A stretch of 64,000 nt of DNA from positions 96,001 to 160,000 of the forward strand of contig CM000436.1 in assembly GCA_000165345.1 (NCBI GenBank), given 5' to 3'. A program made the translations under genes and the position numbers. The first letter of the stretch is position 1, and every line of letters begins with the position of its first letter. Shown piece after piece: positions 23,944 to 27,447 of this stretch. The notes under the pieces are model-generated. The model did not search any database, was not told the DNA's origin, and was given only the letters and a program-made list of their open reading frames with translations.

Positions 23944-24387
23944 TTAACATTTTTCAGAGTAACGATGGAGTGCTGATAGAAGATCATCAGGGGAAATGGC
24001 ATTATCTCCATCACCATCTAAGTTAGTTAACATAGTTTTTAATTCTTCCTCACTCATTGAAAGACCAAGTCTGGAAGCACATGCTGAAAGATCCTCAAGA
24101 TCTATTGTTCCAGTCTTCTTGATATCAAGGCAACTAAAGATATTTACAGCATCTTCAACAGTGAATTTTTTTATCTCATTTCCACTGTTTACAAGACTTA
24201 CAAATCCTGCAAAATCTAGTTTACCTCCACACTCCTGAGTTAGTGAGTTTAGTCTTCCAATGACTGTGTTATCTAATGGAATATCCATACACGTAGCTGC
24301 AGCTCTTAAGAACCCAACATCTAACCCTGATTTACCATCAAGTAAATCAAAAACATCTCTCAATTCTCTAACTTCAGTACTGTCCAT
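23944..24387 (-). CDS. EF-hand (calmodulin-like or myosin-light-chain-like) protein, 147 aa
   Basis: Four degenerate EF-hand-like loops (DLLDGKSGLDVGFL, DIKKTGTIDLEDL, DGDGDNAISPDDL) and the size and acidic composition typical of calmodulin-family light chains. They are not canonical Ca-binding loops. Confidence 0.6.
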   Translation of the reverse strand: MDSTEVRELRDVFDLLDGKSGLDVGFLRAAATCMDIPLDNTVIGRLNSLTQECGGKLDFAGFVSLVNSGNEIKKFTVEDAVNIFSCLDIKKTGTIDLEDLSACASRLGLSMSEEELKTMLTNLDGDGDNAISPDDLLSALHRYSEKC

Positions 24388-24742
24388 TTTTTTTAAAATA
24401 AAATCAAACTGCCAATATTAGTATTAGTTTTCCTTGGATAAAGCCAAATAAAAGAAAATTAATAAAGCTCTGATATATAATTACTCTTTTTTTTTTTTTT
24501 TAAATCTTTACAAATACAACTTCCTTTATAATCTATTTATTACCTTGGCTTAAACAAATACAACAAATCTCGTCAGAAAATAATAATTCGCTTCCACTAT
24601 ATTCGTATTTTATTATTCTCCCTTCCCCTTTGCTCCTCTTTAATACTAAGCTTATATCTGAGATGCTTATATTTATACTTTCTCTTATTTTCCATGTATT
24701 GCCGTTTACATGTCTAATATTATGCACACTTTAATGATGCAA

Positions 24743-24790
24743 ATGTGGCGGCAAAAATGCCCGCCAGACATGCCATATGGCGGTAATGGT
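24743..24790. promoter_or_regulatory. Bidirectional promoter with three E2F-like boxes (ATGTGGCGGCAAAAA, GCCCGCCAGAC, ATATGGCGGTAATGG)
   Basis: Lies between the divergent EF-hand gene (start 24387, -) and the two-exon gene (start 24858, +). Read directly. Confidence 0.45.
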
Positions 24791-24857
24791 GGGGAATTGT
24801 GTAAAAGATTAAAAGAGCTAATTTAGTAGAGAATATAAAGGATGGAAAAGAGGGATT

Positions 24858-25636
24858 ATGTTAGGTAGAGGAGAGGACAATGTGAATGATAGAGACAGTA
24901 ATAGTTTGGAAGATAGTGTGAACGGTTTAGTGGAGGATGAATTGGCAGAGATGATATTGCTGCAGGAAGTGTATGATTTAAGGTTGGAGAAAAAGAAAAT
25001 TAGAGTTGCTGGAATTGTAAAATCCGTGGACTTGATTGAGCAGGAGATTGCGATATTCTACGAGTCCAGAAGCTTAAGAGTGAGTTTGAGGTATGGATTT
25101 TAACTTATAAAGTGCATGGTTTTGGTGAAGGAAAGTAAATATATAGATAATAATTATTGAAAAAAAAAGAAATTAAAAGAAGGGGAGGAGCCATCGTAGT
25201 CAGGTGTGTAATAAGGATAAAAATAACCAATAACACGAGCAATGCTGGCGCCTTTACACGTCATTTCAATGTTTTTAGGTTTTAAACATTGTTTTACCAA
25301 AATCATGTATCATTTCCATAGAGAAAAAAAACTTTTTTTCTTCGAGTAGAAATGATTACTAGATTAATTATCTAACTTTAATATTAATTTATTTTTAGGA
25401 ACTTGAAAAAACCAAGGATTCAAAGCATAGAAAAAGGAAGTAAGGTGGAAGTTATAGGTTACATAATAAATCAGGAAGATTTCAATACATGCGAACTGAA
25501 AGAAAGCAAAACTAAGGGGAATTTGGTTATGATCGCTCAAGTAATAAGAAATATTGATGAAACTAATTTATATTTCCATCAATTAAGTATTATTTTACGT
25601 AGAAAAATACTAAATTCCGTGAATATTATATATTAA
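24858..25636 (+). CDS. Hypothetical small protein, possibly OB-fold-like; proposed two-exon gene join(24858..25090,25399..25636), about 157 aa
   Basis: Two adjacent small ORFs of 81 and 77 aa in compatible phase. A GTATGG donor at 25091 and a ttatttttAG acceptor at 25397-25398 rebuild an AGG codon across the junction. The polypyrimidine acceptor sits immediately before the second ORF. Beta-strand-rich stretches (KIRVAGIVKSVD, GSKVEVIGYIIN). The splice model is unverified. Confidence 0.4.
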
Positions 25637-25941
25637 AGGGTTATAATTTAATTAATTTTATTTTCTAATTGGTTTTTTTTTGCATAGCTTGTATCATATA
25701 TTAAATTATCAATAATAAATGGGTGTCTGCTAATTGATTCAATCCATTCAATCCATCTAAATAGGTAAAGAAAAAAGAGTTAATTTCAAAGTCAGATTTT
25801 GTTCAATTTTTTTTTTTATTAAATAATTTATGTAATCGTAATTATTATTGAATTACGTGTTTTTTGCATGCATGCAAAAAATAACGGTAATTAAATAAAT
25901 TATTAAAAAAAAAAATTGGTATTAGTGATCCCAAAGTAAAC

Positions 25942-27447
25942 TTACTTGTTATAGTTTTCTTCTGAAATAGTTGAATAGATTTTGGAGTAGATTGAGTTAA
26001 CTTTAAAAGATTCCATTTCTTTAACAAAATGGCAATCCTTAATATGAAATGAGAGAAATTGAATTGCAAAATCAGTTTGATCAGTGGAAATGCTTCTTTT
26101 TGTATTATATGAGTTATAAAAAACTCTATCTAGAAGAAGTCCTTGGCTTGGAGCTAAATGAATGGAAAATTTATCGGGTAAAAAACAAAGTTGAATTCCA
26201 TTGCTTGGAGCTGTTCCTCTAAAAATTTCTATAGCTAATGCTACCATTTTTCTTATTTGGTGCAATAGAAATGACTGGCCTTTAATTATAATCTTAATAA
26301 GGTTAATTTCCCCTTTAATTTCGTTTTGACTAACTTTTACTACTTTAATTTCTTCAATATGCCTCCAAGAAGTGGAATCTTCATAACTTGATTTTGATGT
26401 AAAATTATGAAAACTATGTGTACCAATATATTCATTCAAAATTGATTGAAATCTCTTTAAATCTTCATCTGATAAACTGAATCTCCTTTTTGGGTCTAAA
26501 TAATCCTCAATTTTATAATTTACCAACCTGTAATCATTTCCAAAACCATAGTTGTTGAGTCTATTAGTTTGATGAAATTCAAACTGTTTCATCCTCTCTC
26601 CTTTTTCATCATCCTCATCATCTTCTTCTCTTTCAACTTCTTCTTCGATTTCATTGACTTCAGGGTTATGGTTTAAACTTGTATTGATAGTTTCTCTTTT
26701 TCTTTTTTTACTTGCATTCTTTAATTCATTTAATCCTTTCTCAAATCTAGATAAGCTTGCTTTGTTAAGCTCTTCTTTGAAATCATCATTGTTAATATTT
26801 ACATGTTTAAGAAGAAATTCAGGCATTAAGTATTCGTATTGTCTTCTAGAACAATCTGTTCTGGCATCAAAATTCTTTGTTACTCTAAAAATCTTAAAAA
26901 CCTTAATTTTTGTTGATTCTAAAAGTTCATTGAGTTTAGTTACTATATAATCAAGAATCAATAATTCATCCAAAAATTCATCCAAATTATTTTTTAAAAC
27001 TAATGAAGCTCCTCCTAATAGAGGATTTATACTCTGAATTTTATCTACTCCATTCTTATTTAAAATATCTCTCTCTTCTTTAAGTCTTTTACAGATTTCT
27101 ATTATTTTTTCATCAACATCCTTATTCTTTAAAATAAGTTCTAACTCGTCATTTATTTTAATTTTAGCTCTAAAAGATACTACTTGACAAACTGAATGTA
27201 CCCCTTTATCAGTTCGCCCAACTCTAGACCACTTAATCTTCTTTAATAATCCTCCTTGATCATCATTTTGTTCATTACTTAAAAAAAACATACCAAGCTT
27301 CTCTAAACAATCTTCCATTTCTCCTTCAATAGTTCTCAATTCTTCTACCTTTTTATTATTTCTCATTTGAATCTGCATCCCATGATAATCTGATCCATCA
27401 TATCCAAAGGACATGCAATATGTTTTCATAGGGATTACCTCTTTCAT
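25942..27447 (-). CDS. tRNA pseudouridine synthase (TruA/Pus1-3 family), 501 aa
   Basis: N-terminus YCMSFGYDGSDYHGMQIQ and catalytic-Asp motif GRTDKGVHS, both TruA hallmarks. Acidic low-complexity insert. An alternative start is the Met at 27429. Confidence 0.8.
   Translation of the reverse strand: MKEVIPMKTYCMSFGYDGSDYHGMQIQMRNNKKVEELRTIEGEMEDCLEKLGMFFLSNEQNDDQGGLLKKIKWSRVGRTDKGVHSVCQVVSFRAKIKINDELELILKNKDVDEKIIEICKRLKEERDILNKNGVDKIQSINPLLGGASLVLKNNLDEFLDELLILDYIVTKLNELLESTKIKVFKIFRVTKNFDARTDCSRRQYEYLMPEFLLKHVNINNDDFKEELNKASLSRFEKGLNELKNASKKRKRETINTSLNHNPEVNEIEEEVEREEDDEDDEKGERMKQFEFHQTNRLNNYGFGNDYRLVNYKIEDYLDPKRRFSLSDEDLKRFQSILNEYIGTHSFHNFTSKSSYEDSTSWRHIEEIKVVKVSQNEIKGEINLIKIIIKGQSFLLHQIRKMVALAIEIFRGTAPSNGIQLCFLPDKFSIHLAPSQGLLLDRVFYNSYNTKRSISTDQTDFAIQFLSFHIKDCHFVKEMESFKVNSIYSKIYSTISEENYNK

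Follow-up and report, generated by a model that had tools for sequence, protein, structure and literature searches.

Two short open reading frames (ORFs) that follow each other on chromosome 8 of the apicomplexan Cryptosporidium parvum raise the question of whether they are two genes or the exons of a single one and, in the latter case, what this gene encodes. The ORFs lie at positions 24858-25636, on the plus strand, of a 64,000-nucleotide (nt) stretch of this chromosome (hereafter, the window; contig CM000436.1, positions 96,001 to 160,000), which has a G+C content of about 30%. The original prediction, made from the DNA letters alone, joined the two ORFs across an intron and likened the product to small OB-fold proteins such as RPA3 or TEN1. 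The analysis described here indicates that the locus is most likely one two-exon C. parvum gene for an OB-fold protein of the Ten1 family, the family of the smallest subunit of the CST (Ctc1/Cdc13-Stn1-Ten1) complex. Both the gene model and the Ten1 label are already present in public databases, so that the gene is known as an annotation and no new discovery is claimed. As a check of the method, reading of the raw sequence alone recovered a two-exon gene that had been missed or truncated by 2004-era annotation.

Splice junction and gene model

The two ORFs, an upstream one of 81 amino acids (aa; 24858-25103) and a downstream one of 77 aa (25403-25636), are present and co-oriented as predicted, and the peptides quoted from them, KIRVAGIVKSVD and GSKVEVIGYIIN, are found in the sequence. 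Joining of position 25090 to position 25399 restores an AGG codon (AG from the first exon, G from the second), keeps the frame and yields a 471-nt open frame that encodes 156 aa and a stop. The donor at 25091, the matching acceptor and the in-frame AGG codon of the original prediction are thus exact, and the product is the deposited C. parvum protein; two details needed correction, namely, the length of the product, given as 157 aa, which is the number of codons including the stop, and the position of aatttatttttag, given as 25387-25398, which in fact spans 25386-25398. The parts of the gene are as follows.

24858-25090, plus strand: exon 1, coding, 233 nt; codons 1-77 and the first two bases (AG) of codon 78; encodes an acidic, poorly conserved N-terminal tail (aa 1-29), then predicted OB-fold strands 1-3
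25091-25398, plus strand: intron, spliceosomal GT-AG type, 308 nt, after the second base of codon 78
25399-25636, plus strand: exon 2, coding; last base of codon 78, then codons 79-156; stop codon at 25634-25636; encodes predicted OB-fold strands 4-5 and a C-terminal helix

The segment between the exons has the features of an intron: a GT donor (GTATGG, 25091-25096), an acceptor AG behind a pyrimidine tract, a branch-point-like motif (CTAAC, 25372-25376, 22 nt 5' of the acceptor) and a reading frame that is restored upon removal. Its G+C content is 27%. The frame of the downstream ORF contains three stop codons within 25373-25387, and between the last of these (25385-25387) and the downstream ORF, the sole AG is that at 25397-25398, which follows a T-rich tract; the run TTTATTTTTAG ends at the acceptor (25398), with the pyrimidine tract and the AG together occupying 25386-25398. 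The downstream ORF was delimited with a tool that uses the bacterial code, which is the reason why it appears to start with TTG. The first ATG in its frame corresponds to residue 122 of the joined protein, so that this ORF is not an independent eukaryotic gene. An alternative donor with a better consensus, GTGAGT at 25080, was considered and rejected, given that it makes no in-frame join to the 25399 acceptor; its in-frame acceptors are located only inside exon 2 (25445 and 25475), and their use would remove GSKVEVIG, a conserved strand.

Four deposited C. parvum proteins (QOY39799.1, KAL5366780.1, WKS79299.1 and WRK33795.1) agree with the joined product at every residue, and the names under which the identical proteins have been deposited are "hypothetical protein CPHLJ_8g505", "OB domain-containing protein" and "Telomere-capping CST complex subunit". 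Among these entries, QOY39799.1 presumably comes from the IOWA-ATCC annotation. All introns in the C. parvum IOWA-ATCC annotation (100%) are reported to be supported by RNA sequencing (RNA-seq) (PMC8744675), and the re-annotation of C. parvum demanded support from RNA-seq or complementary DNA for new models (PMC4637869).

The junction is conserved across the genus. We compared the locus in a genomic alignment of six species: C. parvum, C. hominis, C. meleagridis, chipmunk genotype I, C. ubiquitum and C. canis. Exon 1 consists of 233 gap-free nucleotides in all six; all insertions and deletions are inside the intron, the lengths of which (308, 303, 292, 282, 252 and 191 nt) differ by numbers that are not multiples of three. 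The sequence of the intron diverges faster than the exons, with identities to C. parvum of 94, 81, 69, 53 and 33%, compared to 96-95, 89-88, 83-82, 76-78 and 69-56% for the exons. The motifs at the two splice sites are conserved, that is, an exon end AG followed by the donor GTA[T/A]GG, and the acceptor TTTTAG followed by G, and splicing at the homologous sites produces a full-length ORF in each of the six species. Three annotations, those for C. hominis (303-nt intron), C. meleagridis (292 nt) and C. ubiquitum (252 nt), use homologous donors and acceptors, and in C. canis and chipmunk genotype I the junction is conserved at the sequence level. Both exons are under purifying selection, with ratios of nonsynonymous to synonymous substitution rates of 0.1-0.34 for exon 1 and 0.22-0.41 for exon 2.

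Among more distant species, the annotations of C. andersoni (156 nt, donor GTAAGT) and C. bovis (61 nt, donor GTATGT) place an intron in this codon with unchanged phase. C. ryanae has, at the same spot, a 57-nt GTACGT...CAG segment that is in frame by chance and is translated through in the deposited model; judging by its position and phase, this segment is probably the same intron. Altogether, nine species share the codon and the phase, with introns of 57-308 nt (that of C. ryanae being read from the sequence). Because position and phase are common to C. andersoni, C. bovis and, probably, C. ryanae, the comparison identifies the intron as an old one whose length in the C. parvum group rose to about 300 nt. 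Within this group, the introns measure 191-308 nt, several times the length (about 60 nt) found in C. bovis and C. ryanae. As the original prediction remarked, 308 nt is long for this genome, in which the published mean intron length is 99 nt (PMC4637869).

Taken together, comparative genomics and the annotations of other groups make the splice well supported, and 24858-25636 is almost certainly one spliced gene with the junction at 25090/25399.

Several of the deposited orthologue models look wrong at the junction, including recent automatic annotations. The model for chipmunk genotype I (100 aa, P0005; L005 3001-3303) reads through the donor. In C. canis, one model (134 aa; L003 3001-3632) employs non-homologous splice sites, and a second annotation has a form of 146 aa. 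The C. ryanae model (175 aa; L008 2501-3028) includes the translated 57-nt intron, and the old C. hominis TU502 entry (P0018) consists of the 81-aa first ORF only. Re-splicing at the homologous sites increases the score against the Pfam family Ten1_2 from 31.3 to 37.6 bits in C. canis and produces a match of 41.5 bits in chipmunk genotype I, for which the deposited model has no match.

Family assignment and predicted structure

The joined protein (18.0 kDa) matches Pfam Ten1_2 (PF15490, "Telomere-capping, CST complex subunit") with 35.8 bits (E = 7e-9), above the cut-off of 27 bits for this family. The match is a single stretch, residues 30-150, that crosses the junction at residue 78 and encompasses profile positions 5-115 of 117. 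Neither half reaches the threshold: the upstream ORF alone has no Pfam match, and the downstream ORF alone scores 20.8 bits and covers Ten1_2 positions 66-115 only. Orthologues are present in C. hominis, C. tyzzeri, C. meleagridis, C. ubiquitum, C. canis, C. bovis, C. ryanae and C. andersoni. Ten1_2 is matched by all 8 full-length Cryptosporidium orthologues (best E = 2.2e-12); the Pfam RPA3 families were matched by none of the 8 at E-values up to 10, with the reservation that the HMMER filters can drop very weak matches.

Alignment with MAFFT places the Cryptosporidium proteins end to end with vertebrate TEN1. Seven residues (E37, R49, G52, G91, G98, A124 and R146) are invariant in all 28 aligned sequences, and the segments paired between Cryptosporidium and vertebrate TEN1 include IRVAGIV with LRTFGRL, GSKVEVIGYI with GSLYIVLGEL, and IAQVIRNIDETNLYFHQLSI with KARVLTCVEGMNLPLLEQAI. 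A profile-profile comparison with vertebrate TEN1 aligns residues 45-149 with residues 23-116 (E = 0.002).

A first AlphaFold run relied on a Cryptosporidium-only alignment of 6 sequences, of which two were mis-annotated; its model consisted of helices only, had a predicted local distance difference test score (pLDDT) of 39 and was discarded. In the second alignment, vertebrate TEN1 sequences were added and the Ten1 of Schizosaccharomyces pombe was absent; the resulting model has a pLDDT of 74, and of about 90 in the core. In this model, the strands are formed by residues 47-58, 63-68, 71-76, 93-102 and 120-129 and a helix by residues 135-155, so that the predicted protein is a single five-stranded OB fold with a C-terminal helix, preceded by an acidic, disordered N-terminal tail, and is nearest to Ten1 structures. 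The exon junction falls between strands 3 and 4; hence, each exon would encode half of one OB fold, and according to the model, a folded protein is impossible from either ORF alone.

In a Foldseek search with this model, the top six hits are Ten1 chains from human and S. pombe (E = 1e-7 to 2e-6); archaeal RPA14 (5e-6) and human RPA14 (3e-4) appear further down. Structural similarity of the joined product was one of the checks that the original prediction proposed for itself, and the best matches found are Ten1, ahead of RPA14. Its broader suggestion, an OB fold like that of RPA3 or TEN1, agrees with the OB-fold model and with the above-threshold Ten1_2 match, which support TEN1 better than RPA3.

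The surface that would bind Stn1 can be compared residue by residue. Human TEN1 contacts STN1 through a conserved salt bridge made by R27, and the helix interface is lined by M100, L104, L105, A108, I109, Y115 and R119 (PMC3691326). The equivalent of R27 is the invariant R49, and three helix positions are occupied conservatively (I142 for I109, S141 for A108 and F137 for L104).

Several observations count against the Ten1 assignment. Three STN1-contact positions are changed (L105 to H138, Y115 to I148 and R119 to V152), and because some contacts are kept and these three are not, the Stn1-binding surface is only partly recognisable. The profile-profile match to vertebrate TEN1 is weak, with a probability of 13% at the E-value given above. 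When 1.84 billion representative proteins were searched using HMMER with a Cryptosporidium profile, only Cryptosporidium sequences were found; given that the genus profile finds no relative outside the genus, the Cryptosporidium Ten1 is very divergent. The same profile found nothing significant by sequence in the PDB (SilF, E = 0.7, is a chance match). Finally, the fold match to human TEN1 is partly circular because the confident model needed vertebrate TEN1 in the alignment. Two further comparisons were uninformative or discarded: hhalign runs that paired the Cryptosporidium profile with human TEN1 and with human RPA14, each as a single sequence, yielded probabilities of 7 and 2%, respectively, and a phmmer search of the PDB with the single protein gave GTP-binding proteins with E of about 0.3, which we take as chance matches. 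When these points are set beside the Ten1_2 match, the alignment and the model, the protein can be assigned with good confidence to the Ten1 family.

Upstream region and neighbouring genes

Upstream of the gene, and within its intron, lie three non-coding features.

24690-24745: near-invariant non-coding block, 5' of the E2F-like sites, containing ..CCATGTATTGCCGTTTACATGTCTAATATTATGCACAC.. (six species)
24747-24786: three E2F-like sites, 72-111 nt before the ATG, likely a promoter element; GGCGGCAA at 24747-24754 (plus strand), GGCGGG at 24760-24765 (minus strand) and GGCGGTAA at 24779-24786 (plus strand)
25247-25252: palindromic E2F-like GGCGCC, mid-intron, in a stretch of local conservation; partly conserved

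The original prediction had the gene driven from a bidirectional promoter with a triple E2F cluster. The three sites are real and conserved in the species alignment, and they match the published E2F-like motifs with the cores GGCGGG and SGCGCS. Among promoter motifs of C. parvum, the E2F-like type prevails: it is the commonest one upstream of genes (PMC3734150), and E2F-like motifs dominate the open-chromatin peaks, more than half of which are annotated as bidirectional promoters (PMC11761812). In the window, GGCGGBAA occurs 14 times compared to 0.38 expected, and GGCGSS 37 times compared to 3.4 expected. Transcription of the Ten1 gene would probably start at the conserved E2F cluster, which would fit a replication-linked gene; given that such sites are general promoter elements in C. 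parvum, they say little about S-phase regulation specifically.

The E2F cluster adjoins a wider conserved block (24533-24745) that is 99, 96, 86, 77 and 62% identical to C. parvum in the other five species, a level of conservation equal to or above that of the coding exons, with insertions and deletions that are not multiples of 3. The core of this block (24690-24745) is nearly invariant even in C. canis. Beside the E2F sites, it carries ACATGT and TGCACAC, which match the upstream motifs ACATGY and HTGCACH, both described as over-represented (PMC3734150). C. bovis and C. ryanae show the order ACATGTCT..TGCACAC..E2F sites as well, and C. andersoni has an altered run, ACATG..ATGCACAC..GCGCC-type sites, which adjoins the EF-hand gene. 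This recurring order of motifs, including the C. andersoni run beside the EF-hand gene, fits one promoter for both genes, and the block is probably a promoter module that is shared by the divergent EF-hand and Ten1 genes; activity in both directions is plausible.

An RNA within the block was considered and set aside in favour of the promoter module. A scan of 24300-26000 against Rfam at E up to 1 gave no match for the upstream block or the intron, and a single snoRNA match inside exon 1 was taken as chance. RNAalifold yielded modest z-scores for the block (-1.5 to -4.4) and, the core being invariant, no usable covariation; there is thus no convincing conserved structure. An out-of-frame upstream ATG (ATGGAAAAGAGGGATTATGTTAGGTAG) at 24842-24868 opens an 8-codon frame that overlaps the Ten1 start codon; whether it belongs to the mRNA depends on the transcription start site.

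The E2F-like site inside the intron has the form TGGCGCC in three species (C. parvum, C. hominis and C. meleagridis); chipmunk genotype I has TGGCGCA, C. ubiquitum TGCCGCC and C. canis TGGCGTC. As a whole, the intron has changed about as fast as synonymous sites, so that any function of the intron is uncertain.

The Ten1 gene is flanked by genes for an EF-hand protein (147 aa, minus strand, 23944-24387) and a tRNA pseudouridine synthase (minus strand, 25648-27447), and the gene order SAS-6 (plus), EF-hand (minus), Ten1 (plus), pseudouridine synthase (minus) is kept in eight other Cryptosporidium genomes. Splicing also applies to the pseudouridine synthase gene, the intron of which has 189 nt (25757-25945; GTAAGT...CCTATTTAG, minus strand); with a conserved 3' exon (25651-25756) added, the 501-aa ORF becomes a product of 536 aa, as long as the models in C. 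hominis and C. meleagridis. Only 11 nt separate its stop codon (25648-25650) from the Ten1 stop codon (25634-25636), and with convergent stops this close, the 3' untranslated regions of the two genes must overlap.

Possible role, alternatives and known systems

If the protein functions as its relatives do, by analogy with the human, yeast and Tetrahymena CST, it would pair with a Stn1-like (RPA32-like) subunit via the C-terminal helix and R49. The resulting CST-like complex would bind the G-rich overhang of the telomeric repeat TTTAGG, keep telomerase in check and bring in DNA polymerase alpha-primase to fill in the C-strand, and might also restart stalled replication. On this analogy, the chances that the protein actually has a CST-type telomere role appear about even, and the broader proposition, that Cryptosporidium keeps a working Stn1-Ten1 (CST-type) system of end protection and C-strand fill-in, is put forward tentatively, at slightly short of even. 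The telomere-template-like repeat CCTAAACCTAAA does not occur within the window. Subtelomeres have been reported to be duplicated between C. parvum chromosomes (PMC8744675).

The literature offers little to compare with. Our searches found no paper on Ten1 or CST in Cryptosporidium, no description of a CST-type end-protection system for any apicomplexan and nothing relevant on cgd8_505 or CpRPA3; one apparent occurrence of cgd8_505 in the supplement of a paper is actually cgd8_5050. The gene thus points to an apparently unstudied CST-type telomere or replication factor in Cryptosporidium. If this reading is correct, a divergent, genus-restricted Ten1 would be the first handle on CST-type end protection in an apicomplexan and could lead to the missing Stn1/Ctc1-like partners and to the mode of chromosome-end replication. 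Because the telomere end-protection proteins of apicomplexans are poorly known, the Ten1 gene is a reasonable candidate for tagging.

Among the alternatives, the one that survives best, albeit as an unlikely one, is that the protein is a genuine OB protein of the Ten1/RPA3 superfamily that is not telomeric and that acts, for example, as an accessory of replication or repair or as the partner of a short-type RPA1, without a Ctc1/Stn1 complex. The animal CST has genome-wide roles in replication, too, which counts in favour of such a function, as do the lack of homologues detected by HMMER outside the genus, the changes in several STN1-contact residues and the lack of CST work on this lineage in the literature searched. 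On the opposite side, the family-level match is specific to Ten1_2, the strand-1 arginine that bridges to STN1 is invariant, and Ten1 works together with Stn1 in the systems studied.

It is quite improbable that the gene is spliced as described but encodes RPA3 (RPA14) of replication protein A, or a paralogue of RPA3. The 8 orthologues that match Ten1_2 include none that matches Pfam RPA3, human RPA14 follows the six Ten1 chains in Foldseek with an E-value about 1000-fold worse, and the hhalign alignment to human RPA14 covers only 15 columns (E = 0.026). Furthermore, a distinct C. parvum RPA3 of about 12 kDa has been reported (PMC12427563), compared to 18 kDa for the protein discussed here.

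The absence of splicing, with two separate small genes or chance ORFs and a coincidental in-frame join, is extremely improbable: older or automatic annotations call the first ORF only (81 aa in C. hominis TU502; the 100-aa read-through in chipmunk genotype I), but the downstream ORF lacks an ATG before residue 122, only the joined product passes the Ten1_2 threshold, the position and phase of the intron are constant from C. parvum to C. andersoni across lengths of 57-308 nt, the predicted OB fold requires both halves, and the read-through tail past the donor (YGF and a stop) is not conserved as coding.

Returning to the Ten1 assignment, the closest known systems are RPA3, TEN1 and the CST of Tetrahymena. 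From RPA3/RPA14 (human, 1L1O/2PI2; Pyrococcus abyssi, 8AAJ_C), the Cryptosporidium protein differs in that there is no profile match and that the Foldseek similarity is weaker than to Ten1. Compared to TEN1 (human, 4JOI/8D0B/7U5C; S. pombe, 3K0X/3KF6; PF15490), the Cryptosporidium protein is only 17-21% identical and carries, in addition, an acidic tail of some 29 aa at the N-terminus and an insertion of 12-15 residues between strands 4 and 5; residues 107-116 have low model confidence and lack a vertebrate counterpart in the MAFFT alignment. The resemblance to TEN1 consists in a single OB fold of about 120 residues with a C-terminal helix, in the arginine that bridges to STN1 and in part of the hydrophobic face of the helix, which are kept in the Cryptosporidium protein; the Tetrahymena CST (p75-p45-p19; PDB 7UY5/7UY7) stands beside TEN1 among these closest known systems.
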